Shown here one piece after another: positions 10,173-63,726 of a DNA stretch of 64,000 nt. The stretch is from positions 2,203,380 through 2,267,379 of the forward strand of contig CBDAVT010000002.1 in NCBI GenBank assembly GCA_965201145.1, written 5' to 3'. This DNA comes from Dehalococcoidia bacterium. Its GTDB lineage: Bacteria > Chloroflexota > Dehalococcoidia > Lucifugimonadales > UBA3495. Both the position numbers and the translations under genes were made by a program. Each line of letters opens with the position of its first letter. Position 1 is the first letter of the stretch. The notes beneath the pieces were generated by a model. It was given only the letters and a program-made list of their open reading frames with translations, made no database searches and was not told the origin of the DNA.

Positions 10173-11949
10173 CTAATTTCCTGAATCCCGGTCGCCTTGC
10201 TCGGAGACGTGTCGAAATATTTGCTCATGGGCATACTCTTGAGCCTCGAACAAATCAACCAAATCTCTAATACTATTAACGTACAATCTCTTGTTATCGG
10301 CATTGTTAATCCTTAACTCTTCCAGTGTCAGCTTATTCCGCTTAATTCCGTTGCAAGTACGGTGGAGTAATGCCAGATTATAGAGTTCATCATTTCCTTG
10401 CATCCCTTCATTTGCTTTCCTGGCCCGGATGTGGTCAACTTCCAGCAGGGTATCATCCAGAGTTCCGTTGGGCCGGTAGGGTTTGTAGCCGCAACCCCAA
10501 CAGACCGGGCCAAATCGGTCCATCAGTAGCTTCTTGGCTTCCTCTTTGGGTATGCGCCCGGACCATGTAGAGGATTGTGATGGCAGTTTCTGCCCTTTCT
10601 TACGTTGTGAGATGTTGTAGAAAGGAGCGGGATCTATATCAGTACGCTTGGGCAATTGATCTGGGCCAATAGTATATGAAGTTGACTGTTGCAGTTCGGT
10701 TTGATGTTCTCCTAACGCTTTGTGTGTGCTGTTGGTCGTGTCAGAAAGGGCAAAACCATTTAAGTAAAACCTCCGTTTGAGCATAGTCCACGCTCTATAT
10801 GCCATGTCGCAAGCCAACCATCTACGGTTTAGTCTTTCAGCTGCGATGGCAGTTGTAGCACACCCGGCAAATATGTCCAAAACAACGTCGCCAGGATTAC
10901 TAGAAACTCGTATAATACGCTCATAGAGGTCTAATGGCTTTTGCGTGGCGTACCCGGTTTCCTCCAGCCTCCTTTTAACCAGTTGGTAGGCATATAGCTG
11001 TTTAATGTCGCTCCAAACTGTAGATAGTGGAACACCTTTGGATTCATCTAAATATTGAGTTTCTGTATTACCGTTAGGTCGTTTCCTTGTACGGAAGCGG
11101 CGGCCATCACCGTCTTTGTAGATGAAACGTTCACTGACGTACTTGTCTGAGTATGGGAGATAGATAGGATTGCAGGGCTATCGCATATGAAAAAATTTCA
11201 GGCTCAGAACGGAACTTTCCGATGTTTTGGCGGCGCTTTACTGGGTAATCAACATCAAAACCAACGGTTTAAGTCTTAAATTACCCAAATTTAGCAGTTA
11301 AAAACGGAGATTTACCCGTCAATTGGCCTCTTAAAATCCATATGCGATAGCCCTGGATAGGATTGTAAGTATGTTTACCGCCATTCCTAGCGTAGAATAA
11401 AAGCGTATCATGCGCTTTGACCTGTTTTGCTCCCCCTGCTCTTCCTCCTGACGGCGTACCATAACTCCACACGATTTCGTTCACCATATTGTTCGCTCCG
11501 AACACGGCATCTAATAACATACGCAAATAGCTGTTCGCATGGCTGTTACAGTGAACATATATACTACCTGTATCCTTTAGTATGCGTCTGCACTCGATTA
11601 ATCGGACTGCCATAAAAGCAATGTATGCCGCTTCGTTATCAGTCGCGCACGCTTCGACAGCTTGGATTACAGCATGGATGGCAGGATAATCATCTTGTAT
11701 TCGCATCTTCCATGTCGGATGCACGTCATCGTCCCAGTTCCAAACGTCCTTTACTCGTGTCTCTCCAATACCTTCGTTATGAGCGACACGATGCTCACGT
11801 GCTAAAGCCTTTTCTTCTTGTAGCTCAGCAGGTGTTATGGGGGGGTTAGGCTTTCTTTTGAACGTTTCATTAGCAGCAAATGGTGGGTCTATGGCAATAA
11901 GGTCAACGCACTCGTTGTTAAGGGACCGAAGGAACGTTAAGTTATCCAT
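10173..11949 (-). pseudogene. DNA methyltransferase (N4/N6, DPPF motif) fused to a C-terminal HNH nuclease domain, interrupted by a MITE
   Basis: N-terminal part has IAIDPPF (motif IV). After the MITE the same frame continues (YLPYSDKYVSERF...VLDIFAGCATT, motif I). The C-terminus has HNH-like EVDHIRARK...LALLHRTCNGIKRNK. Removing 11173-11355 plus one TSD restores one 527-aa ORF. Confidence 0.85.
11173..11355 (+). mobile_element. 183-bp MITE-like element, copy 2 (variant A)
   Basis: Same TIRs. 10-bp TSD GATAGGATTG (11163-11172 and 11356-11365). Lies inside the methyltransferase coding sequence. Confidence 0.9.
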
Positions 11950-41453: not shown

Positions 41454-41636
41454 CAGGGCTATCGCATATGGATTTTAAGAGGCCAATTGACGGGTAAATC
41501 TCAGTTTTTAACTGCTAAATTTGGGTAATTTAAGACTTAAACCGTTGGTTTTGATGTTGATTACCCAGTAAAGCGCCGCCAAAACATCGGAAAGTTCCGT
41601 TTTGATCCTGAAAATTTTTCATATGCGATAGCCCTG
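41454..41636 (-). mobile_element. 183-bp MITE-like element, copy 3 (variant B, inverted)
   Basis: Same TIRs. 10-bp TSD GGGAAGGGGT (41444-41453 and 41637-41646). Lies about 220 nt upstream of the SBP start. Confidence 0.9.
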
Positions 41637-43276: not shown

Positions 43277-43792
43277 CTATTCGCCGACCCGGAGCGGCAG
43301 CGCTTCCCGGAGGACCGTCAGCGTCCCTTTTAGCTCGGACACTTCCCGGGAAATTTCGTCAACCCGGACCTGTAAGGCGTCGATACGGCGGTTCGTTTCA
43401 TCAATGCGGCGGTTCGTTAGGTCAATACGTTGATTTACATAGTCAAACCGCAGGTTCAGATCATCAATGCGCTGATTAACGGCGGCAAAACCATCGGTCA
43501 TCCGCACTTCCAAATCGTCGATGCGCTGATCTATCCGAGCTTCCAAATCATCGACCCGCTGATTGACCGCGGCAAAGCCCTGATCCATCCGAGCTTCCAA
43601 ATCATCGACCCGCTGATTGACCGCGGCAAAGCCCTGATCCATCCGGGATCCTAAATCATCGACCCGCTGATCCATCCGGGTTTCCAGGTCATTGGCCCGC
43701 CGGTTTTGCATTCGGGCTACGGCCAGAATTAAGGTGGCGAGCCCCACTCCCACCCCGATAATGGCGATTATAACTGCGATTTCACCGGACAT
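43277..43792 (-). CDS. N-terminally membrane-anchored coiled-coil protein with hendecad-type repeats
   Basis: 171-aa ORF. TM helix IAVIIAIIGVGVGLATLILAV followed by repeats R(M/I)DQ....NQR(V/I)DDLE. Confidence 0.6.
   Translation of the reverse strand: MSGEIAVIIAIIGVGVGLATLILAVARMQNRRANDLETRMDQRVDDLGSRMDQGFAAVNQRVDDLEARMDQGFAAVNQRVDDLEARIDQRIDDLEVRMTDGFAAVNQRIDDLNLRFDYVNQRIDLTNRRIDETNRRIDALQVRVDEISREVSELKGTLTVLREALPLRVGE
43533..43640. repeat. 54-bp coding tandem repeat (2 exact units plus degenerate flanks)
   Basis: ATCCGAGCTTCCAAATCATCGACCCGCTGATTGACCGCGGCAAAGCCCTGATCC occurs at 43533 and again at 43587. Confidence 0.85.
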
Positions 43793-48801: not shown

Positions 48802-48984
48802 CAGGGCTATCGCATATGAAAAATTTTCAGGATCAAAACGGAACTTTCCGATGTTTTGGCGGCGCTTTACTGGGTAATCAACATCAAAACCAACGGTTTA
48901 AGTCTTAAATTACCCAAATTTAGCAGTTAAAAACTGAGATTTACCCGTCAATTGGCCTCTTAAAATCCATATGCGATAGCCCTG
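48802..48984 (+). mobile_element. 183-bp MITE-like element, copy 4 (variant B)
   Basis: Same TIRs. 10-bp TSD GGCGGGGTGG (48792-48801 and 48985-48994). Lies in a divergent intergenic region. Confidence 0.9.
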
Positions 48985-53564: not shown

Positions 53565-53639
53565 GCCCTCACCCCTCACCCCGCTCCCCCAGGGAGAGGG
53601 GCCGGGGTGAGGGCTTCCCCCTGGCCGGGAGTGAGGGCC
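53565..53639. repeat. compound REP-like palindrome
   Basis: GGCCCTCACCCCTCACCCCGCTCCCCCAGGGAGAGGGGCCGGGGTGAGGGC...GGGAGTGAGGGCC. Confidence 0.7.
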
Positions 53640-53713: not shown

Positions 53714-54175
53714 ATGGACATGGGCGACATCGCCGCCATTGCTGCCATCTCCACCGTATTTCTCGCCATAGTCGGACTTTCGGCCACGGCCATTTTCCGT
53801 ATCGGCAAACTGACCGAGGCCACGGACAGGATACCGGAAGAGTTCCGCGCCGAACTCCAGACCGTGGAAGCTCGCAACGAAGAACGCTTCCAGCGAGTAG
53901 ATGACCGTTTCCAGTATATGGAGGCCTTGAATGAAGAACGCTTCCGACGCATGGAAGAGCGTATGGAAGAACGCTTCCAGCGTATGGAAGAGCGTATGGA
54001 AGAACGCTTCCAGCGTATGGAAGATCTCATTCACCATAACGAGGAGTTAATTCGTTCCGAGAGTGAACGAATTCAGGGGCAGATTCTCATTTTGCAGCAA
54101 GCGATAATGACCCACTCCCACGACCAGGACGGCAACGTCATGTTTCGGGTTCCTATGCCTGATACTGAGGAATAG
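53714..54175 (+). CDS. N-terminally membrane-anchored coiled-coil protein with 11-residue EERFQRMEERM repeats
   Basis: 153-aa ORF. TM helix IAAIAAISTVFLAIVGLSATAIF. 33-bp DNA tandem repeat units at 53933, 53966 and 53999. Confidence 0.6.
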   Translation: MDMGDIAAIAAISTVFLAIVGLSATAIFRIGKLTEATDRIPEEFRAELQTVEARNEERFQRVDDRFQYMEALNEERFRRMEERMEERFQRMEERMEERFQRMEDLIHHNEELIRSESERIQGQILILQQAIMTHSHDQDGNVMFRVPMPDTEE

Positions 54176-54193: not shown

Positions 54194-54332
54194 GGCCCTC
54201 ACCCCTCTCCCCGGAAGCCCTCACCCCTAACCCCTCTCCCGCGAGGCGAGGGGGACTTTGGGCAAACTCTCCCCTCTCCTCCAGGGAGAGGGGCCGGGGG
54301 TGAGGGCTTCCCCCTGGCCGGGGGTGAGGGCC
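54194..54332. repeat. cluster of REP-like palindromes
   Basis: Three nested or adjacent copies of the CCCTCACCCC / CCCCTCTCC ... GGAGAGGGGCCGGGGGTGAGGG motif, between two convergent genes. Confidence 0.7.
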
Positions 54333-54447: not shown

Positions 54448-57400
54448 CTAGCCGTTGTCCAGGGTGAACTTGAACTGGCCGCTGGCCGTGCCTCCGTTGG
54501 AGTCCGTGGCCGTTATCTTGATAGTCAACTCCTGGGAGGCGGCTCCTCCGGCGGTCAGCGTTAGCGTGCTGCCCGACCAGGAACCCGTTACCTTGTTCCG
54601 GGCGATCTCGTTCAGCTTCCCGGTTTTGACCGCTCCGGTGCGCTGGTGGGTGGTGGTCACCTCAACTGCGTAGGTCAGGCCGTCGCCGCTGAAGTGGCTG
54701 GTCATATCCAGCGCGCTGGTTTCGCCTTCCGACAACTCAACGTCGTCGAACTCGTCAATCAGCGTTGCCGGGTTATCCGGCTCCGGGGTAGGTTCCGGAG
54801 TGGGCTCGGGCGTAGGCTCCGGGGTCGGTTCCGGAGTAGGCTCGGGCGTAGGCTCCGGGGTCGGTTCCGGAGTAGGCGCAGGCGTAGGCTCCGGGGTAGG
54901 TTCCGGAGTGGGCTCGGGCGTAGGCTCCGGGGTCGGTTCCGGAGTGGGCTCGGGAGTAGGCTCGGGGGTGGGTTCCGGAGTAGGCGCAGCCGTCGGTTCC
55001 GGCGTGGCCGGGGGAACCGCAACCAGCGTCAGCGTGAAGTCGTCGCTGGCGGTGCCACTGTTCTCGTCGGTAGCCGTGATGGCGATGGTCAGCGACTGCA
55101 AGGCCGCCGGGCCGCCGGTCAGGGTCAGGACGCTGCCGTCCCACGCGCCGGTTACCTTGTTGACCGCAATCGTGTTGAGTTCGCCGGTCTTCTGGTTGCC
55201 GGTGCGCTGGTTGGTGGTGGTAACCATCACCTGGTAGGTGAGGCCGGCCCCTCTGAAGTGGTCGTCCATATCAAGGGCCTGCTCGCCGCCGTTCCAGATG
55301 TCCAGGTCATCGAAAGCGGCAATCAGCGTCGCATCCGGCCCTGGCGTGGGATCCGGCGTCGGCGCAGGCGTGGGTTCCGGGGTCGGTTCCGGGGTAGGCG
55401 CTGCCGTCGGCTCCGGGGTGGGTTCCGGGGTTGGCGCTGGCACTGCCGTTGCGGTGGGCACTGGCGTGGCCGTGGCGGTCGGTCCCGGCGCGGTTGTGGG
55501 CGCCGGCGTCGTCGCCTCGGTCGTCAGGCCGCTCACTTCCACCGTAAAGTCGCCGGCGGTGGAGCTGTAGAACGTCGTCGCTTCGATCGTGTAGGTCCCG
55601 GCGGACAGCGTTCTGGTTATCTGTGAGTTGGTATAAACGCCGCCGTCATCGTTTTCCTCGATTACGCTGCCGTTCGTACCCTCGCCCGAAAGCAGGTACA
55701 TATATGCGTCCCGTCCGATTATAAAGTCGCCCGGTGTGGTTGGATCCGGGACATCGGCCGGAACGATGAGGTCGATCTGAACTTCAGACTCCTCGCTGAG
55801 GGTGAAGCTGTAGTACTTGGCGTAAGCGCCCGGGGGACGATTGGCGGAACCGCAAGAGCTGTCCCAGGTACCCTCCACCGTAACGCTGTCCGAGGACTGG
55901 TCCAGGGCCTCTACCACACAGCCTGGCATGGGCGTTGGCGTCGGCTCAGGCGTGGGCTCGGGCGTCGGTTCCGGCGTGGGGGTTGGTGTCGGCGTCGGTG
56001 GAAGCTCAGGCGTCCCCTCTACCGTGCCGATGGCGAGAACGTTGTCGTCCGAGTCCAGGGCCACAACTTCAACGCTGTAGAGCTGATCCGCCGTCAGGCC
56101 GCTGATGGCGTGGGCATTGGCGGAATCGGTGGCAACGCGGGCGCTGTATGGGCCGATCACCTTCTGGACGACGCCGTTGTTGTCGATCTCATTAACCTCG
56201 CCCCAGCGGATGCTGTGTGCGGCAGCGCCGCTGAACGCGGTCCAGCTGATGGAGAGCGATGTTCCGTCGCCGCCGTCGGTTGCCGTCAAGCTATCAATCT
56301 GTGGGACGATGGGGGTTATCCCGCTGTCGGGCGGGCCGCCCGGCGCGGTTCCTTGCGGCTTGCCGGTCAGTAGAGCCGAGGGGACACGGAGCTGGACATA
56401 GTTGTTGTTGCCCCAGCAGCGGGTCTTGCCCGTGCTGGTGATTGCGCAGGCGTGCTCCTTGCCGACGTCGACGCGCACATACCGCTCGTCATCCGGCGGA
56501 TGCGTCAGACCCTTCGGGCGGTAAGTGTAGATGCCGTTCTCGTTGAAGTACACGTAGACCGGCATCGAATCGACCCGCTCGAACTTGGCGTAGCCGTAGT
56601 GCGTGCCGCCGATAGTGTAGCCGGACGAGCGCTCCCACCAGAAGTCCGTTTCGTCCGTGTCCGTCGCGCCGCGGTTCAGGCGGTCGTTGTTGTACCACGA
56701 CACCTGGAATGGCTCGCTGGAGCCGGTCCAATCGAAAGTCGTGGGACTGGTGCCGTCCCAGAGCGTCAACTGCTCGCCGATGTGCCACGAGGCGTTCCAG
56801 CAGCGGATGTGCCCCTCCAGCCGGGTGGCGCAGATGCCGCCCGGGCCCATGCCGACGGAGGTGTAGGCCCCGTTGGGCATAAAGTTGCCCCGGTCAAAGG
56901 GATAATCCCGGCCGGACACGGCGCCGCTGCCGAATTCAAAGCAGTCCAGCCCGAGGTCGTGGGCGATGAGACAGAGGGTATTGTTGGAAACTTCCAACGC
57001 ATCAAGGCTGTAGAGCTCCGCTCGTTTGATGGCCGGACCGCCACCCAATGACGAGATATCAGGGCCCTGGATCGAAACGCGCTGGTCGCCATCCCCTCTG
57101 CTGCTCGGCGAGTCGGCGCAGCGGGCCGCTCTGAGGTCAAGACCCCCAAAGGACGCGGTGTCCGGTATCAGACCACAGGTGAAATTGCCCCAGTCGTCCA
57201 CTGCGAGCTTGACTATATTATGATTCGCTTCGTGCGGGAAGTCTCCCTGCTTCGGGGTGCTGTCCTTGAAGCATATAGGCTGGTTACTATCCTCCTGTAC
57301 CAGACAGGCGTGGCGCCCGCCGACGGCAACGTCCTTCACGTTAGGGTAGGCAGTGCCGCTGCTGTCGGATATGATGGTGCCGATTTTTTTGCCGAGGGAC

Positions 57401-59259
57401 TCTCGGGAGTATCCCTTGCCCCAGCAGACCGCGTTCTTGCCGGCGGTGATGCCGCAGGTGATCGAGTCCCCGGCGGAGACTGCGTCCCAGTGGTACTTCG
57501 TGCCGTTGAGGTCGGTCGGGACGTTCGTTTCGCCGTAGGTGTTCTTGCCCCAGCAGACCAGCGCGCCTCTGCCGTGGTTCAGCGCGCAGGTGTGGTAGAA
57601 GCCGGCGCTGATGTCCACATCGCCCTGCATGATCGGGGAGGCGGCATCGCCGAACAGGCTCAGGTCATGCACCGTCGGGTAGTTGGTTTCGTACCCCTCC
57701 ATATAGACGACGAAAGATTTTCGGGCTGGTTCCCCGGCCGGAGGCGCGTTGTGACGTGTGCAGGTGATGCGTATGTTGTCGCCACCGATGGGGGTGTCGA
57801 GATGCTCAGAGCAAATCACGCCCGATGAGGTTTTCACCCCTCCCGGCAGGACGGCGGCGTAGCGATAGCCGCCGGGCATCTCCGCCACCGCGGGCTGGAT
57901 CTTGACATACTCCCCGTCAGACCATTCGTGCATGTACTCCGGGGCGTTCAGCCGGAAGCGGTAGCCGTCCCACTTGGGCCAGACCATCTCATCGGTTCCG
58001 TGCCAGTCGCCGGCCTTGCCGTCGTAGTTCCAGTCGGACCAGTACTGCGGGGCAACGACGCCGTCGTACAAGCCCTTGTTGCCGTGATCGCCGGTGCCGC
58101 TGCCGTCGCCGTCGCTCATGATCAGCTGGATCCTGATCCGCTTGTCGCGGTTCTGGACCATATCCTCAGACATGCTCATGCGCAGGTAGTTGACGCCGTC
58201 GTTCATATAGCCTGGGCCGATGGGGCAGCCCTTGGCGTACTTTTTCCCTTTGTAGACGTAGCTGCCGGGCCGCACTGTCGGCTCGCGGCGCGTTTCGTCA
58301 TAAACTATGGTGTCCTGGTGACAGGGGCCCGTAATGAGCCGGAGGGGGCCCGAATCGGGCTCGCCATCCTTCGGCGTCGGCACAGAGGCGTGGTGCTGCC
58401 AGTAGTCCCGCTGATCCCACTGGCTGTCGAAGTAGCCGTTGGAGTTGGCGTAGTTGATCTGGACGTAGATGCCCTTGATGTAGCGGGCGGGCGGCGGATT
58501 GTCGAACTTCCAGGCGATGGTGAAGCCGCGCTTGCCGTCTTCCGGCTCAACGTCAACGTAGTTGAGCCAGGCGTCAAAGCCCATAGGGTCTGGGTTCGCC
58601 TCGGCCGGCTCCAGGTTGAACAGGCAACTAGCCAAATCCGCTCCTGCGACTGAGTTCAACCCGGCGTTCTTTCCGCCCGGCACACTCGCAACCGGGATGT
58701 CATCGTGGTCCGGGACGGTTACGCCGATGGAGTTCTTGAGGTGATACTCATGGTAGGCGTATTGGGTGCCCTCTACTTGGTTTGATACGTCTCCCCGGGC
58801 GGTATCTGCATTGCCGGAGATATACCAGCCCTTGGGTAGGTTCGAGCCTAGGTACTGATACTTGTACCCCACATAGTCCGCGGTGCTCAGGGCATCGGGG
58901 ATGTCCCAGCCGCAGACCACCACCGGGTCGGTGTCCGTGGTGATGTCCTTGTAATGGACGGTGACCTCCATGTCCAGGTCCGAGTTGGCGCCCTGGCCGA
59001 AGGTCCCCAAGTTCAGCGTGCGGTCCTTCAGCGTGAACTTGGTGCCGACGCCGTAGTAGTCCTCGTCGTTATAGTTGTTGGTTCCCGAGGTGTGGCGCCC
59101 GTCGCGGAAGAAGGTGTCTTCCTGCAGGGACGGCGTGGCGCCGTACTGCACCAGCACTTCGTCCAGGACAACGTGGTTATTGCTGTCGCTGGTGTCGGTC
59201 AGCTTGATGACGATCGTCAGCCCGCCGGCGCCGCCATTGGGCGGGTCGAGGCTGGGCAC
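54448..59259 (-). CDS. giant secreted multidomain protein (main reading frame)
   Basis: 1603-aa ORF. Contains RCC1-like repeats (C.L...G...CWG.N.YG), an FN3-like segment, a pre-peptidase C-terminal (PPC)-like domain (YYSFTLSEES...TYTIEATTF), three PT/PEPT linkers and two about 100-aa Ig/cadherin-like repeats at the C-terminus. It has no signal peptide of its own. Confidence 0.8.
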   Translation of the reverse strand: MPSLDPPNGGAGGLTIVIKLTDTSDSNNHVVLDEVLVQYGATPSLQEDTFFRDGRHTSGTNNYNDEDYYGVGTKFTLKDRTLNLGTFGQGANSDLDMEVTVHYKDITTDTDPVVVCGWDIPDALSTADYVGYKYQYLGSNLPKGWYISGNADTARGDVSNQVEGTQYAYHEYHLKNSIGVTVPDHDDIPVASVPGGKNAGLNSVAGADLASCLFNLEPAEANPDPMGFDAWLNYVDVEPEDGKRGFTIAWKFDNPPPARYIKGIYVQINYANSNGYFDSQWDQRDYWQHHASVPTPKDGEPDSGPLRLITGPCHQDTIVYDETRREPTVRPGSYVYKGKKYAKGCPIGPGYMNDGVNYLRMSMSEDMVQNRDKRIRIQLIMSDGDGSGTGDHGNKGLYDGVVAPQYWSDWNYDGKAGDWHGTDEMVWPKWDGYRFRLNAPEYMHEWSDGEYVKIQPAVAEMPGGYRYAAVLPGGVKTSSGVICSEHLDTPIGGDNIRITCTRHNAPPAGEPARKSFVVYMEGYETNYPTVHDLSLFGDAASPIMQGDVDISAGFYHTCALNHGRGALVCWGKNTYGETNVPTDLNGTKYHWDAVSAGDSITCGITAGKNAVCWGKGYSRESLGKKIGTIISDSSGTAYPNVKDVAVGGRHACLVQEDSNQPICFKDSTPKQGDFPHEANHNIVKLAVDDWGNFTCGLIPDTASFGGLDLRAARCADSPSSRGDGDQRVSIQGPDISSLGGGPAIKRAELYSLDALEVSNNTLCLIAHDLGLDCFEFGSGAVSGRDYPFDRGNFMPNGAYTSVGMGPGGICATRLEGHIRCWNASWHIGEQLTLWDGTSPTTFDWTGSSEPFQVSWYNNDRLNRGATDTDETDFWWERSSGYTIGGTHYGYAKFERVDSMPVYVYFNENGIYTYRPKGLTHPPDDERYVRVDVGKEHACAITSTGKTRCWGNNNYVQLRVPSALLTGKPQGTAPGGPPDSGITPIVPQIDSLTATDGGDGTSLSISWTAFSGAAAHSIRWGEVNEIDNNGVVQKVIGPYSARVATDSANAHAISGLTADQLYSVEVVALDSDDNVLAIGTVEGTPELPPTPTPTPTPEPTPEPTPEPTPTPMPGCVVEALDQSSDSVTVEGTWDSSCGSANRPPGAYAKYYSFTLSEESEVQIDLIVPADVPDPTTPGDFIIGRDAYMYLLSGEGTNGSVIEENDDGGVYTNSQITRTLSAGTYTIEATTFYSSTAGDFTVEVSGLTTEATTPAPTTAPGPTATATPVPTATAVPAPTPEPTPEPTAAPTPEPTPEPTPAPTPDPTPGPDATLIAAFDDLDIWNGGEQALDMDDHFRGAGLTYQVMVTTTNQRTGNQKTGELNTIAVNKVTGAWDGSVLTLTGGPAALQSLTIAITATDENSGTASDDFTLTLVAVPPATPEPTAAPTPEPTPEPTPEPTPEPTPEPTPEPTPEPTPEPTPAPTPEPTPEPTPEPTPEPTPEPTPEPTPEPTPEPDNPATLIDEFDDVELSEGETSALDMTSHFSGDGLTYAVEVTTTHQRTGAVKTGKLNEIARNKVTGSWSGSTLTLTAGGAASQELTIKITATDSNGGTASGQFKFTLDNG
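54777..55008. repeat. coding microsatellite-like repeat (18-bp period) encoding PEPTPE linker
   Basis: GGCTCCGGGGT(A/C)GGTTCCGGAGT(G/A)GGCTCGGGCGTA reiterated. Shorter versions lie at about 55330-55500 and 55925-56000. Confidence 0.8.
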
Positions 59260-59693
59260 CAGCTTTTCCGTGGTGTTGTTCGAGCCAGCTTGGGGGAACC
59301 AAGGTTGTTTTCGGTCCAGTCGGTGTCGAAGCCGAGCTGGACGATGCCGTCGGAGCCGTCGTTATACAGATAGACGTTGTCCATCTGTACAAGCTGCTCC
59401 CCTTCGGGCACGTGGAAGTCGAACGTTGTGGGGTTTATGGTCCCTTCGGAGTTTATCGCCCGGTCGAAGCAGATGAAATCCACCGCGGCGCCGCCGCGGG
59501 TCATCGGTTCGCTGCACCCCTTGACGTTCTCAATTGCATGGTTGCTCCTACTGGCGTCGCGGGCTTCAGCCTGCTGGGTGGGCGCGGCCAGGGCCAAAGC
59601 CGTCAACCCCACCACCGCCGCCAGGAACAGGGCGGTGATAAACGGTAAACTTCTGACGGGTAAATTTTTGCTGGTACGGTAAAGGGCAAACAT
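59217..59693 (-). CDS. N-terminal fragment (signal peptide plus first domain) of the giant protein, separated by a 1-nt frameshift
   Basis: The ATG at 59693 gives MFALYRTSKNLPVRSLPFITALFLAAVVGLTALALAAPTQQAEA (Sec-type signal). The frame meets the 54448..59259 frame at a C5 run (G5 on the plus strand, 59292-59296). One extra C fuses them. Confidence 0.6.
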   Translation of the reverse strand: MFALYRTSKNLPVRSLPFITALFLAAVVGLTALALAAPTQQAEARDASRSNHAIENVKGCSEPMTRGGAAVDFICFDRAINSEGTINPTTFDFHVPEGEQLVQMDNVYLYNDGSDGIVQLGFDTDWTENNLGSPKLARTTPRKSWCPASTRPMAAPAG

Positions 59694-59697
59694 CTTA

Positions 59698-59717
59698 CCC
59701 CCCCCCCCCCCCCCCCC
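59698..59717. repeat. C20 homopolymer tract (G20 on the coding strand), 4 nt upstream of the giant-protein start codon
   Basis: Counted directly. The mRNA-sense context is G20-TAAG-ATG. Confidence 0.9.
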
Positions 59718-59916
59718 GCCGGCGCGGGCTAAGCCGGGGGAGGATTTTCCGCATAGTACGAGCCATTGGGGGCACCTCCTGAATTTTGTTGGTGTGTGGA
59801 TGGGTACTCGGTATAGGTACACACTGCGCCCGGAAACACAACTCCAGCGATTCTATCAATCAAGCGCAGCATAAATAATGCTAGAACATAATTGGGCGGA
59901 ATGCAAGGGGGTAACA

Positions 59917-59946
59917 GGCCCTCATCCCCGGTCCGGGGGGTGAGGG
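59917..59946. repeat. REP-like palindrome
   Basis: GGCCCTCATCCCCGGTCCGGGGGGTGAGGG. Confidence 0.6.
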
Positions 59947-59968
59947 TTTTCCGAGGAAGGGGTAAGGG

Positions 59969-60481
59969 CTAGTCCAAAGTAAGCACCAGGGTCAGCAGGG
60001 CGCTAACCGTTGCAATCACCATCGCCGCCGAGCCGCCAACAATGGCATAAAAGAGCCGGTCGATTCGGGAATTAACACTCTGCTGCATGGCATCAATCCG
60101 GGCGGACACCAAATCAATCCGAGTGTCCATACTTTGCTGCAGGGCATCAATCCGGGCGTCCATACTCTGCTGCAGGGAGATTATCAGGGCATTTGTCGCC
60201 CGCTGGTCCTCCCGCAGCTCGGACACTGCCGTCTCCACCCCCGTCAGCCGGGCATTCGTTTCCCGCTGGTCCTCCCGCAGCTCGGACACTGCCGTCTCCA
60301 CTCCCGTCAGCCGGGCATTCGTTTCCCGCTGGTTGGCCTGCATCTCCCCGCGCAGCTCCACCAGGCCCGTCTCTACCCCCGTTAGCCGGGAATTGGTTTC
60401 CCGCAAATCGTCCCGCAGGTCTGCAACCGAGTGCTCTACCGCCGTCATCCGTTCCGACAAGTCATCCGTAGTTGTTACCAT
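59969..60481 (-). CDS. tail-anchored coiled-coil protein, tandem paralog 1
   Basis: Start at MVTTTDDLSERMTAVE (AGGAGA RBS). Modular 11/21/25-aa repeats (RLTGVETAVSELREDQRETNA). C-terminal TM LFYAIVGGSAAMVIATVSALLTLVLTLD. Confidence 0.7.
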   Translation of the reverse strand: MVTTTDDLSERMTAVEHSVADLRDDLRETNSRLTGVETGLVELRGEMQANQRETNARLTGVETAVSELREDQRETNARLTGVETAVSELREDQRATNALIISLQQSMDARIDALQQSMDTRIDLVSARIDAMQQSVNSRIDRLFYAIVGGSAAMVIATVSALLTLVLTLD

Positions 60482-60512
60482 GGTTTTATCTCCTGATTGA
60501 GCTATGCCAACC

Positions 60513-60540
60513 ACTATACCGGATACCGGCCCATTGTCAA
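60513..60540 (-). promoter_or_regulatory. sigma70-type promoter of paralog 1
   Basis: Minus-strand TTGACA-N16-TATAGT, about 30 nt upstream of the start codon. Conserved upstream of all four paralogs. Confidence 0.6.
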
Positions 60541-60570
60541 TCCACTGGGCCAAGGGGAGCGAAACAAAAT

Positions 60571-60608
60571 TCCCCTCTCCTCGCGGGAGAGGGGCCGGGG
60601 GTGAGGGC
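60571..60608. repeat. REP-like palindrome
   Basis: TCCCCTCTCCTCGCGGGAGAGGGGCCGGGGGTGAGGGC. Confidence 0.7.
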
Positions 60609-60628
60609 TTCCTGGGAAGGGGTAAGGG

Positions 60629-61048
60629 CTAGTCCAAAGTAAGCACCAGGGTCGGCAGGGCGCTAACCGTCGCAATCACCATAGCCGCCGAGCCGCCAAC
60701 TATGGCATAAAAGAGCCGGTCAATGCGGGAATTAACACTCTGTTGCAAGGTTTCAATCCGGGCGGCCATCTCGCTCTGCAAGGAATCGATCCGGGAGGTC
60801 ATCTCGCTTTGTAAGGTATCAATCCGGGAGGTCACGCCATCGATCCGGGCGTCCACACTTTGTTGCAGGGAGATTATCAGGGTATTCGTCGCCCGCTGGT
60901 CCTCCCGCAGCTCGGACACTGCCGTCTCCACCGCCGTCAACCGGGCATTGGTTTCCCGATGGTTGGCCTGCATCTCCCCCCGCACCTCCAACACCGAGTG
61001 TTCCACCGCCGTCATCCGTTCCGACAAGTCATCCGTAGTTGTTACCAT
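60629..61048 (-). CDS. tail-anchored coiled-coil protein, tandem paralog 2
   Basis: Same N-terminus, RBS (GGAGGAAAGGAAACT) and C-terminal TM as the others. Different set of internal modules. Confidence 0.7.
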   Translation of the reverse strand: MVTTTDDLSERMTAVEHSVLEVRGEMQANHRETNARLTAVETAVSELREDQRATNTLIISLQQSVDARIDGVTSRIDTLQSEMTSRIDSLQSEMAARIETLQQSVNSRIDRLFYAIVGGSAAMVIATVSALPTLVLTLD

Positions 61049-61079
61049 AGTTTCCTTTCCTCCGTAAGTTCTGCCAACC

Positions 61080-61107
61080 ACTATACCGGATACCGGCCCA
61101 TTGTCAA
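61080..61107 (-). promoter_or_regulatory. sigma70-type promoter of paralog 2
   Basis: Minus-strand TTGACA-N16-TATAGT. The MITE copy 5 boundary is 19 bp upstream of the -35. Confidence 0.6.
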
Positions 61108-61126
61108 TCCACCGCAGTACCCGGCC

Positions 61127-61309
61127 CAGGGCTATCGCATATGGATTTTAAGAGGCCAATTGACGGTTAAATCTCCGTTTTTAACTGCTAAATTTGGGTA
61201 ATTTAAGACTTAAACCGTTGGTTTTGATGTTGATTACCCAGTAAAGCGCCGCCAAAACATCGGAAAGTTCCGTTCTGAGCCTGAAATTTTTTCATATGCG
61301 ATAGCCCTG
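61127..61309 (-). mobile_element. 183-bp MITE-like element, copy 5 (variant A, inverted)
   Basis: Same TIRs. TSD (A)GTACCCGGCC (61116/61117-61126 and 61310/61311-61320). Confidence 0.9.
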
Positions 61310-61317
61310 AGTACCCG

Positions 61318-61433
61318 GCCCTCACCCCTAGCCCCTCTCCCACGAGGCGAAGGGGAACTTTGGCGGATAAGCCGGCTACTGCCCCAAACATAAACTCCCC
61401 TTTCCCCCAGGGAGAGGGGCCGGGGGTGAGGGC
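61318..61433. repeat. compound REP-like doublet
   Basis: CCCTCACCCCTAGCCCCTCTCCC...spacer...CCCCTTTCCCCCAGGGAGAGGGGCCGGGGGTGAGGGC. The same doublet occurs at 62185-62297 and 54215-54310. Confidence 0.7.
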
Positions 61434-61477
61434 TTTCGGGACGGGGCCGAGCTTTCGGGAGGAGAAGGGGGTAGGAG

Positions 61478-61915
61478 CTAGTCCAAAGTAAGAACCAGGG
61501 TCAGCAGGGCGCTAACCGTCGCAATCACCATAGCCGCCGAGCCGCCAACAATGGCATAAAAGAGCCGGTCAATGCGGGAATTAACACTCTGTTGCAGGGA
61601 GATTATCAGACCATTCGTCGCCCTCTGGTCCTCCCGCAGCTCGGACACCGCCGTCTCCACCGCCGTCAACCGGGCGTTGGTTTCCTGCAAATCACCCCGT
61701 ACCTCCAATACCGAGTGTTCCACCGCCGTCATCCGGGCATTGGTTTCCCTCTGGTTGGCCTGCATCTCCCCGCGCAACTCCACCAAGCCCGTCTCCACCG
61801 CCGTCATCCGAGCGTTGGTTTCCCGATGGTTGGCCTGCATCTCCCCGCGCAACTCCACCAGGCCCGTCTCCACCGCCGTCATCCGTTCCGACAAATCATC
61901 CGTAGTTGTTACCAT
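61478..61915 (-). CDS. tail-anchored coiled-coil protein, tandem paralog 3
   Basis: Same termini. Contains two TGLVELRGEMQAN(H/Q)RETNARMTAVE modules. Confidence 0.7.
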   Translation of the reverse strand: MVTTTDDLSERMTAVETGLVELRGEMQANHRETNARMTAVETGLVELRGEMQANQRETNARMTAVEHSVLEVRGDLQETNARLTAVETAVSELREDQRATNGLIISLQQSVNSRIDRLFYAIVGGSAAMVIATVSALLTLVLTLD

Positions 61916-61946
61916 AGCTTCCTTTCCTCCGTAAGCTCTGCCAACC

Positions 61947-61974
61947 ACTATACCTGATACCGGTCCATTGTCAA
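61947..61974 (-). promoter_or_regulatory. sigma70-type promoter of paralog 3
   Basis: Minus-strand TTGACA-N16-TATAGT. The MITE copy 6 boundary is 19 bp upstream of the -35. Confidence 0.6.
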
Positions 61975-61993
61975 TCCACCGCAGTACCCGACC

Positions 61994-62176
61994 CAGGGCT
62001 ATCGCATATGAAAAAATTTCAGGCTCAGAACGGAACTTTCCGATGTTTTGGCGGCGCTTTACTGGGTAATCAACATCAAAACCAACGGTTTAAGTCTTAA
62101 ATTACCCAAATTTAGCAGTTAAAAACGGAGATTTACCCGTCAATTGGCCTCTTAAATTCCATATGCGATAGCCCTG
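61994..62176 (+). mobile_element. 183-bp MITE-like element, copy 6 (variant A)
   Basis: Same TIRs. 10-bp TSD GTACCCGACC (61984-61993 and 62177-62186). Confidence 0.9.
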
Positions 62177-62184
62177 GTACCCGA

Positions 62185-62297
62185 CCCTCACCCCTAACCC
62201 CTCTCCCGCGAGGCGAGGGGGACTTTGGCGGATAAGCCGGCTACTGCCCCAAACACAAACTCCCCTCTCCCTGGGGGAGAGGGGCCGGGGGTGAGGG
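62185..62297. repeat. compound REP-like doublet
   Basis: CCCTCACCCCTAACCCCTCTCCCGCGAGGCGAGGGGG...CCCCTCTCCCTGGGGGAGAGGGGCCGGGGGTGAGGG. Confidence 0.7.
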
Positions 62298-62340
62298 TTT
62301 TCCGGACGGGGCCGGGTTTTCGGGAGGAAGGGGGTAAGCG

Positions 62341-62790
62341 CTAGTCCAAAGTAAGAACCAGGGTCAGCAGGGCGCTAACCGTCGCAATCACCATAGCCGC
62401 CGAGCCGCCAACGATGGCATAGAAGAGCCGGCCAATTCGGGAATTAACACTCTGTTGTAAGGTATCAATCCGGGCGGTCATCTCGCTTTGTAAGGTATCA
62501 ATCCGGGAGGTCACGCCATCGATCCGGGCGTCCACACTTTGTTGCAGGGAGATTATCAGGGCATTCGTCGCCCGCTGGTCCTCCCGCAGTTCGGACACTG
62601 CCGTCTCCACCGCCGTCATCCGGGCATTGGTTTCCCGATGGTTGGCCTGCATCTCCCCGCGCAACTCCACCAGGCCCGCCTCCACCGCCGTCAACAGAGC
62701 ATTGGTTTCCCGCAAATCACTCCGCAGCTCCACCAGGCCCGTTTCCACCGCCGTCATCCGTTCCGACAAATCATCCGTAGTAGTTACCAT
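62341..62790 (-). CDS. tail-anchored coiled-coil protein, tandem paralog 4
   Basis: Same termini. Its module order differs again. Confidence 0.7.
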   Translation of the reverse strand: MVTTTDDLSERMTAVETGLVELRSDLRETNALLTAVEAGLVELRGEMQANHRETNARMTAVETAVSELREDQRATNALIISLQQSVDARIDGVTSRIDTLQSEMTARIDTLQQSVNSRIGRLFYAIVGGSAAMVIATVSALLTLVLTLD

Positions 62791-62821
62791 AGTTTCCTTT
62801 CCTCCGTAAGTTCTGCCAACC

Positions 62822-62849
62822 ACTATACCTGATAGCGGCCCATTGTCAA
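62822..62849 (-). promoter_or_regulatory. sigma70-type promoter of paralog 4 (unoccupied MITE target next to it)
   Basis: Minus-strand TTGACA-N16-TATAGT. The single-copy GTACCCGGCC at 62859-62868 is the empty-site equivalent of the copy 5/6 targets. Confidence 0.6.
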
Positions 62850-62865
62850 TCCACCGGGGTACCCG

Positions 62866-62938
62866 GCCCTCACCCCTCTCCCGCGAGGCGAGGGGTGTTT
62901 CTTTTTCGTCACCCCTCCCTCAGGAAGAGGGCAGGGGA
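62866..62938. repeat. REP-like palindromes
   Basis: GCCCTCACCCCTCTCCCGCGAGGCGAGGGG ... CACCCCTCCCTCAGGAAGAGGGCAGGGGAG. Confidence 0.6.
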
Positions 62939-63033
62939 GTTTCGTTCCATCTGGTGTATAATATATCTTCGGACGAAGCGGCCCGCCCCGACACTTGCAG
63001 CCGCAACGATTCAATAAATGGAGGTATGATTCA

Positions 63034-63726
63034 GTGAAGTTACTGGTAATCAGCGGTGGACGACACCCCTACGAGGAATCTACTCCTATCCTTAACGACT
63101 TTCTTACCGCCGCCGGCCACGACGTGACGGTTACCGAGGATGCCTCGGTGCTGGCTAATTCGGCGGAGATGAACGCCTTTGACGCGCTGGTGTTTAACAC
63201 TCGCCGGGAAAACATCCCCGACTTTGGGGACTGGGCTTTAGCCCCGGCGGAACGGCAGGGTATGGCCGACTATATCCGTTCCGGCAAAGGATTCGTCTGC
63301 CTCCATATTTCCACCTGCCTGTCCAATACCTGGCCCGAGTACCATGAAATCACCGGCGGCGGCTGGATTACCGGAACCAGTTACCACCCGCCCTACGGCG
63401 AGTTTACGGTCAACGTGAGCCAGGCCGGGCATCCCGGCGTCCAGGGCGTATCCGACTTTGCCACCAATGACGAGCTTTATATGGGCCTGGCCTACGGGGA
63501 AGGCAACGATATTTTCCTCACCGGAGATTCGGAGGACGGTACCTGGCCCTGGGGCCCGAATCGCTCCCCCACCTTTATGGCCGGCGGCACCTATCCCCTG
63601 GCCTGGACCCGCGCCTATGGCGAAGGCAAGGTCTTCGTCCTGCTGCTGGGCCACGACGGACGCAGCTTCGAAACACCCGAGTTTCAGCAAATAGTCCTCA
63701 ACGGCGTAGATTGGGCCACCGCCTGA
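63034..63726 (+). CDS. ThuA-domain (trehalose-utilisation-like) protein
   Basis: GTG start 9 nt after GGAGG. KLLVISGGRHPYE ... GFVCLH ... WTRAYGEGKVFVLLLGHD is ThuA-like. Confidence 0.65.
   Translation: MKLLVISGGRHPYEESTPILNDFLTAAGHDVTVTEDASVLANSAEMNAFDALVFNTRRENIPDFGDWALAPAERQGMADYIRSGKGFVCLHISTCLSNTWPEYHEITGGGWITGTSYHPPYGEFTVNVSQAGHPGVQGVSDFATNDELYMGLAYGEGNDIFLTGDSEDGTWPWGPNRSPTFMAGGTYPLAWTRAYGEGKVFVLLLGHDGRSFETPEFQQIVLNGVDWATA

Follow-up and report, generated by a model that had tools for sequence, protein, structure and literature searches.

A tandem array of four paralogous genes for putative C-tail-anchored coiled-coil rods in a Dehalococcoidia bacterium

Background

The Bdr proteins of Borrelia, which are carried on linear or circular plasmids (cp32 prophages), are associated with the inner membrane and their function is undiscovered (PMC10016077). 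They have a C-terminal transmembrane (TM) anchor preceded by tandem 11-residue (K/R)-I-D-x-(V/L) repeats, and each genome holds many paralogues that vary in repeat number. YqjD, ElaB and YgaM (DUF883) are C-tail-anchored, cytoplasm-facing helical paralogues devoid of signal peptide (10.1101/2024.08.16.608256; PMC6389858), and proteins of this type bind and inactivate the 50S ribosomal subunit via their N-terminus (10.1101/2024.08.16.608256). SlaB, the S-layer stalk of Sulfolobus acidocaldarius (8QOX chain B; PMC10903991), contains a long coiled coil that ends in a C-terminal membrane anchor, and its gene adjoins that of a very large surface protein. XhlA (PF10779), which is associated with lysis in PBSX-type prophages, is short, with an N-terminal coiled coil and a C-terminal TM helix. 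Each of these systems partly resembles a tandem array of four genes, hereafter G1 to G4, located at positions 59969-62823 of a 64,000-nucleotide stretch from a Dehalococcoidia bacterium (assembly GCA_965201145.1, contig CBDAVT010000002.1, positions 2,203,380 to 2,267,379 of the forward strand). This whole stretch is called the window and, unless a relative's locus is named, all coordinates below refer to it. We read the array as four separately transcribed paralogues that would encode C-tail-anchored rods, with a role as stalk or tether offered as a guess, and we give this reading somewhat better than even chances.

Results and discussion

Gene structure and selection

The original prediction had placed four minus-strand genes here, and all of them are open reading frames (ORFs) in the ORF list: G1 at 59969-60481 (170 aa, with the longest rod, ~140 residues or ~21 nm), G2 at 60629-61048 (139 aa), G3 at 61478-61915 (145 aa) and G4 at 62341-62790 (149 aa). 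As had been claimed, the four proteins start with the same 16 residues (N16, MVTTTDDLSERMTAVE; minus strand, 60434-60481 in G1, 61001-61048 in G2, 61868-61915 in G3 and 62743-62790 in G4). They end in a near-identical 34-residue block (C34, NSRIDRLFYAIVGGSAAMVIATVSALLTLVLTLD) composed of NSRIDRLFY, the TM helix and TLD, which together with the stop codon occupies, also on the minus strand, 59969-60073 in G1, 60629-60733 in G2, 61478-61582 in G3 and 62341-62445 in G4. The common C-terminal TM anchor was thus recovered, but two substitutions had gone unmentioned: a Leu to Pro change in the middle of the G2 anchor helix (SALPTL; SALPTLV), which is otherwise invariant, and an Asp to Gly change in the conserved RIDRLFY of G4 (RIGRLFY). 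With these changes, G2 and G4 could be showing early decay or a divergence of function. Altogether, the sequence shared among G1-G4 goes far beyond chance.

A scan of 59800-63100 retrieved exactly four promoter-like sites of the form TTGACA-N16-TATAGT, which match 11 of 12 consensus positions. Each lies on the minus strand at a constant distance 5' of one array gene: 60513-60540 (G1), 61080-61107 (G2), 61947-61974 (G3) and 62822-62849 (G4). The flank 5' of the last of these sites is 100% identical in the independent short-read contigs L018 and L019. Both promoter and ribosome-binding site (RBS) had been described as shared; this is true of the promoter in all four genes, but the RBS and 5' untranslated region are common to G2-G4 only (GGAGGAAAGGAA) and differ in G1 (AGGAGATAAAACC). 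Accordingly, the block from -90 to +48 has an identity of 0.88-0.95 within G2-G4 and of 0.75-0.78 when these are compared with G1. GC-rich, terminator-like hairpins with T-rich tails are found on the minus strand 3' of G4 (62262-62284), G3 (61395-61414) and G2 (60572-60594, as part of a GC-rich palindromic repeat). Since every gene has its own promoter-like site and hairpins follow G4, G3 and G2, the array would be made up of four stand-alone transcription units.

The internal organization of the proteins was parsed by splitting them at the recurring (A/G)VE and QQS(V/M) boundaries. The common layout is a Thr/Asp-rich N-terminal cap, a variable stack of 21- and 25-residue modules, a conserved 24-residue junction and from zero to four R-I-D units of 7 or 11 residues, after which NSRIDRLFY leads directly into the TM helix. 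The resulting module lengths are 16-21-25-21-24-11-7-11-34 in G1, 16-25-24-7-11-11-11-34 in G2, 16-25-25-21-24-34 in G3, which is devoid of free 11-residue units, and 16-21-25-24-7-11-11-34 in G4; the internal modules do therefore differ in number and order, as originally proposed. Each 21/25 module contains one R-h-x-x-h-E motif. All the length differences between the proteins are sums of 7 and 11 (21 = 3x7; 25 = 7+7+11), so that the coiled-coil register runs undisturbed from the N-terminus into the membrane helix.

Like modules are 80-100% identical in DNA and the conserved end blocks have a dS of 0.05-0.48, so that calling the modules near-identical DNA was an overstatement. Some modules are chimeric: the first of G2 (G2.1) carries the 21-mer head HSVLEV on a 25-mer body, and the first of G4 (G4.1) the head TGLVEL on a 21-mer body. 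Moreover, the nearest paralogue changes along the genes. G2 pairs with G3 in the 5' block (0.95 identity), G3 with G4 in the 25-mers (0.96), and G2 with G4 in the junction and hendecads (0.97-1.00). Unequal recombination and gene conversion among modules would be expected to produce such a segment-wise shift which, together with the chimeric modules, supports the recombinational shuffling that had been suggested.

Selection was evaluated with Nei-Gojobori counts over three conserved blocks, pooled over paralogue pairs. The pooled pN/pS is 0.00 for N16, 0.14 for the junction and 0.10 for C34, with pairwise dS values of 0.05-0.48; in N16, the six pairs sum to 14 synonymous and 0 non-synonymous differences. 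Purifying selection acts on the conserved blocks. Silent sites that have diverged while the protein was kept rule out a duplicated-assembly artefact and non-coding repeats as the source of these blocks.

The repetitive nature of the locus nevertheless calls for a wider look at the artefact hypothesis, in which the array would result from the mis-assembly of a repeat, or its ORFs would be non-coding repeats that happen to stay open. In at least 10 runs, the short-read contigs (L018-L027), all bearing an identical ThuA gene, end within ~50-315 nt upstream of ThuA, near the array edge; a relative's gene in L008 holds an assembly gap, and no product of 59969-62823 was found in a collection of 15 billion proteins. 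Yet, many synonymous substitutions separate the copies, each of which has a module order and spacers of its own. Every indel preserves both the frame and the coiled-coil register, homologues that share these ends exist in independent genomes, and the flank is 100% identical in independent assemblies. An artefact is hence extremely improbable. The breaks in the short-read assemblies consistently fall at the array or at the adjoining GC-rich repeat, as expected of a repeat that short reads cannot cross. The organism is present in runs SRR33960551/53 and SRR33991074-98 of the source project.

Predicted structure, topology and role

AlphaFold2 models G1 as one unbroken helix over residues 3-169 (pLDDT 92.7) and G2 likewise over residues 3-138 (pLDDT 94). 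When the PDB was searched with the G2 model in Foldseek, no match was returned, as is to be expected of a single helix. The only strongly hydrophobic 19-mer is C-terminal (Kyte-Doolittle 1.9-2.2, with its maximum within the last 19-27 residues), and the hydrophobic periodicity of the rod, 3.53-3.58 residues, is coiled-coil-like. These predictions agree with the rod and tail anchor of the original description. The rods span 109-140 residues, or ~16-21 nm, lack lysine and have a net charge of -7 to -10.

No signal peptide or hydrophobic N-terminal segment was found in these proteins, whose N-terminus (MVTTTDDLSERM) is acidic. The anchor ends 1-3 residues before the C-terminus; its rod side is basic (S-R-I-D-R) and its distal stub acidic (TLD). 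Two N-anchored relatives encoded in the window have the same polarity (MSGE-TM-ARMQNRR and MDMGD-TM-RIGK). By the positive-inside rule and the absent signal peptide, the rod is most likely cytoplasmic.

The opposite topology would put the rods outside the membrane, where they could serve as coiled-coil pillars for a surface layer made of the adjacent giant secreted protein, anchoring or spacing it much as SlaB does with SlaA in Sulfolobus. This possibility is raised by the giant gene downstream of the array (54448-59259, minus strand), whose product of at least 1603 aa has RCC1 repeats and Pro/Thr linkers; the array does adjoin this giant secreted protein gene, as reported initially, since it lies directly upstream on the same strand, and the ORF 5' of the giant gene encodes a signal peptide. 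In addition, the broad profile of the family aligns to the SlaB coil and anchor (8qox_B residues 354-469, E 2.3e-6), and strong promoters would suit an abundant envelope protein. Nevertheless, the export of 105-140 residues with 11-16 arginines in proteins devoid of signal peptide is unlikely, the charge flanks favour an N-in orientation, and 1-3 residues past the anchor are typical of tail-anchored insertion. The separate promoter of each gene and the hairpins after G2-G4 also argue against it, as does the NCBIfam SlaB model, which scores 11.4 bits against a cut-off of 700. Contrary to the array proteins, SlaB has a signal peptide, N-terminal beta domains and an extracellular coil. Finally, the giant-protein neighbour is found in none of the relatives' loci (L001-L014), so that its adjacency to the array provides no evidence of a functional link. 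We consider external stalks clearly unlikely.

With regard to oligomerization, R-h-x-x-h-E is a trimerisation motif of short coiled coils. The best solved-structure matches of the narrow profile are the trimeric coils of P22 gp26, SlaB and reovirus sigma-1, all of them weak (E >= 0.005). The array proteins would form a parallel coiled coil, probably a trimer. An amphipathic helix lying on a lipid surface, prompted by matches to apolipoproteins, was judged less likely, since hydrophobic residues occupy only 3 of 11 positions (a, d, h), a better fit to a coiled-coil core than to a wide lipid face.

If these predictions hold, the proteins would be inserted post-translationally, leaving an acidic, lysine-free rod of 16-21 nm in the cytoplasm. 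Unequal recombination or gene conversion among the repeated modules would generate the length variants. By analogy with other bacterial C-tail-anchored proteins, our guess is that the rods may act as cytoplasmic membrane-anchored stalks or tethers, which would set the distance from the membrane at which a partner is held or large complexes are excluded.

The same general architecture, several C-tail-anchored cytoplasm-facing helical paralogues per genome, would also be expected of ribosome-tethering hibernation factors of the YqjD/ElaB/YgaM type, with their N-termini on the 50S subunit (10.1101/2024.08.16.608256). The N-terminal tip, identical in G1-G4 despite its silent differences, would be in line with such a function. 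However, DUF883 is absent from all 25 Pfam families retrieved for G3 (E <= 10) and from the 25 best matches of G1, G2 and G4. Moreover, a peptide that enters the ribosomal tunnel would be expected to be basic, whereas the N-terminus of the array proteins is acidic. Their rods are also far longer than those of the YqjD-type proteins, which have no repeat modules. This interpretation is therefore very improbable.

Relatives of the array proteins

No model of Pfam, NCBIfam, PHROG or PADLOC matches the array proteins at threshold, and the sub-threshold matches amount to generic coiled-coil noise (SMC, apolipoprotein, JetC, ZorA). The best Pfam score is that of G1 to DUF1664 (PF07889; 28.6 bits against a cut-off of 34.6), with lower values for G2-G4. 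The original admission that no family could be assigned was thus correct. Direct searches with G1 matched 8 proteins among 5.8 billion, and a profile search gave 1083 hits at E <= 1e-3 among 1.84 billion representatives; many of these are 80-200 aa long with a match that reaches the C-terminus, and a subset starts with M(V/T)T(A/T)TDD. A scan of species-representative genomes yielded 11 loci, all from metagenome-assembled genomes (MAGs) of Dehalococcoidia or Chloroflexota, whose proteins (79-117 aa) end in N(S/G)R(I/F)DRLFY and the anchor and contain a variable count of 11-residue units. A metagenome scan returned a single, distant locus. Tandem copies occur in the relatives' loci L005, L006, L008, L013 and L014. 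The Pfam scan of 55 wider family members revealed no dominant family: five match XhlA at E <= 1e-3 and three the CCDC90-like DUF1640 (PF07798). The accession PF28217 is precomputed for many distant members and for none of the close ones. Judged from these profiles, the genes can be placed in a large uncurated group of putative small tail-anchored proteins with 11-residue (R/K)-I/F-D repeats, mostly from Dehalococcoidia MAGs. From their names, we take some of the MAGs that carry group members to be sponge-derived.

In L008 (10013-10572), the relative's gene is broken by a run of N inside the hendecad repeats, which makes repeat counts in short-read MAGs of this family unreliable.

Relatives are also found elsewhere in the window. 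The protein encoded at 43277-43792 (minus strand, 171 aa) has an N-terminal anchor followed by (R)-V/I-D-D-L repeats and matches the family hidden Markov model (HMM) with an E of 4.7e-18. The one encoded at 53714-54175 (plus strand, 153 aa), where an N-terminal anchor precedes EERFQRMEERM 11-residue repeats, is weakly related (E 1.4e-5), and its gene abuts the 3' end of the giant gene. The source genome appears to be rich in membrane-anchored hendecad-repeat proteins.

Among named proteins, the closest resemblance is with Bdr. The broad profile retrieves Borrelia Bdr at E values of 1e-17 to 1e-12 and aligns to Bdr residues 90-187, that is, the repeats and the anchor, with an hhalign probability of 97.8% and the anchor columns aligned. 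Conversely, a search with the Bdr HMM among 1824 ORFs recovered G2 (4e-6), G1 (1e-4) and G4 (1.6e-3) in their R-I-D repeats and gave no match for G3; G1, G2 and G4 contain two to four R-I-D units of 7 or 11 residues and G3 has only the terminal RIDRLFY. As in Bdr, paralogues of variable repeat number coexist in the genome, here as four genes. Yet, the conserved N-terminal domain of Bdr (its first ~60-90 residues) has no counterpart in the array proteins, the alignment starting at column 90, and their region of 21/25-residue modules is missing from Bdr. They use Arg where Bdr uses Lys, and the array is chromosomal in Chloroflexota instead of being borne by a spirochaete plasmid or prophage. The Bdr-type likeness that had been perceived thus holds for the hendecad repeats and the anchor, but does not extend to membership, since the N-terminal domain is absent and the narrow subfamily profile reaches an hhalign probability of 1.8% with Bdr. 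By profile comparison, no named protein would be a nearer analogue than Bdr, which may be distantly related but is not the family of these genes.

The profile's reach to Bdr, carried on cp32 prophages (PMC10016077), invites the hypothesis of a mobile-element or prophage heritage, in which XhlA- or Bdr-like proteins would aid lysis, vesicle release or element maintenance. The likeness to XhlA that had been suggested is weak (24.3 bits for G1 against a cut-off of 34.7, and not among the matches listed for G2-G4), and PHROG 937, annotated as hemolysin, covers coil and anchor (E 3e-5). Furthermore, the relative in L013 is found among ArdC, Rad52, PD-(D/E)XK and DUF6094-helicase genes. However, the array proteins are longer than XhlA and repetitive, and neither a lysis cassette nor any phage gene such as a holin or endolysin is found near the array, whose neighbours are ThuA, a luciferase-like oxidoreductase and transporters. 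No relative was detected by a motif scan of 2.9 million viral contigs, and 50,697 phage records yielded nothing beyond a generic coiled-coil tail fibre. Near-consensus, constitutive-looking promoters would be odd for lysis factors, and the relatives other than L013 are in metabolic neighbourhoods. A heritage of this kind is quite improbable.

In L013 (1-12393), a tandem pair of family genes lies between Rad52/Rad22, PD-(D/E)XK, ArdC-N and MPTase-PolyVal genes on one side and a 1384-aa DUF6094/helicase gene on the other. This region looks like an integrated mobile element.

Several points weigh against the reading of the array as separately transcribed genes for cytoplasmic, Bdr-like stalks or tethers. 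The topology was derived from the positive-inside rule and the absent signal peptide; some distant relatives have basic residues beyond the anchor, and some hendecad proteins of the wide group (P0019, P0025) clearly have their rod outside the cell. The trimeric state is deduced from a sequence motif, and the sigma-70-type promoters are named from consensus matches. In the relatives' loci L001-L014, no conserved gene neighbour ties the family to a process. Lastly, given the 1.8% obtained with the narrow profile, the link to Bdr could be a convergence of repeats and hydrophobic tail.

Genomic neighbourhood

The upstream neighbour of the array is a gene with a ThuA domain, and the window also contains housekeeping and metabolic genes (ProRS, ALDH, transporters). 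The best named relatives of the ProRS are Dehalococcoidia and SAR202 MAGs, with 78-80% identity. Rfam and tRNA scans of the window returned nothing. Amidohydrolases, an ABC permease and a JAB protein are common to seven syntenic Dehalococcoidia loci, none of which shares anything with the window; one relative's locus is in a mobile-element-like region and another is among metabolic genes.

The ORF with a signal peptide located 5' of the giant gene (59217-59822, minus strand) is in a different frame from the giant ORF and overlaps its start by ~40 nt, near a C5 run. A public collection holds the 158-aa product 5' of the giant gene as a separate entry. This arrangement could be due to a frameshift or a pseudogene, or the ORF could encode a small secreted protein of its own.

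Intergenic repeats

Two families of repeats are interspersed with the genes. The first is an AT-rich miniature inverted-repeat transposable element (MITE) of ~185 bp, which has terminal inverted repeats (CAGGGCTATCGCATATG) and is flanked by target-site duplications of 8-9 bp. The window contains six copies, 96-99% identical and in both orientations, with 12 matches to the terminal inverted repeat against 0.15 expected. Four copies lie outside the array, at 23-201, 11175-11353, 41456-41634 and 48804-48982. The other two are in the G3/G2 spacer (61126-61312, ~10 nt upstream of the G2 -35 element) and, in the opposite orientation, in the G4/G3 spacer (61991-62177, ~10 nt upstream of the G3 -35 element). 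Delimited like the other four, these two copies span 61129-61307 and 61996-62174. Both array copies have the same target duplication, GTACCCGRC, and G4 retains an empty site. As a pair, they form an inverted repeat of 187 nt and 98% identity that brackets G3 and its promoter, which might let the G3 segment invert. The idea that the AT-rich inverted spacer segment is itself an invertible switch was rejected, since the segment belongs to this dispersed MITE, of which there are six copies with target duplications of 8-9 bp.

The second family comprises GC-rich palindromic repeats (core GAGAGGGGYYRGGGGTGAGGG) that cluster at gene ends in both orientations, some of which double as terminator-like hairpins. 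They are located at 220-231, 53575-53604, 54205-54321, 59937, 60565-60608, 61318-61433, 62184-62298 and 62852-62906, and look like a family of intergenic repeats similar to repetitive extragenic palindromes.

Strain variation

A public contig of 2,422,633 bp has a ProRS 100% identical to that of the window and carries flanking proteins that match those of the window exactly; ThuA, the neighbours of 158 and 153 aa and a protein of 170 aa are all recorded there. The same contig lists four further paralogues (P0002-P0005, of 138, 131, 131 and 99 aa), none of which is encoded in the window. More likely, the genome has at least eight paralogues and this array is just missing from the protein collection; less likely, another array occupies this locus in the public copy. 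If P0002-P0005 were to sit at this locus, near-identical genomes would differ in every array gene.

A short-read contig (L020 1-330, from SRR33991082), which corresponds to window positions 62722-63050, has the G4 upstream flank joined to a G2-like first module, with HSVLEVRG in place of TGLVELRS and promoter single-nucleotide polymorphisms of its own. It could stem from a true strain variant or from chimeric assembly. Because G4 and G2 are identical over the 45 nt that contain the switch point, this possible chimera was set aside as evidence of strain variation.

A bolder view of the locus is that of a fast-evolving length-variation system of intracellular membrane-anchored rods which, together with Bdr, would represent a cross-phylum class of tail-anchored stalks variable in repeat number, with length as the selected trait. 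We give this proposal a low chance.

Conclusions

The array is a tandem expansion that changes rod length in register-keeping steps and involves no new mechanism. C-tail-anchored small proteins are poorly catalogued in bacteria, and a curated model of this family would annotate ~1000 representative proteins that are currently nameless. The natural length series of the array (109-140 rod residues) offers a ready-made test of the importance of stalk length. If the profile matches reflect kinship, the Bdr-like proteins that combine repeats and an anchor would fall within a far larger uncurated group that abounds in Dehalococcoidia and related Chloroflexota.

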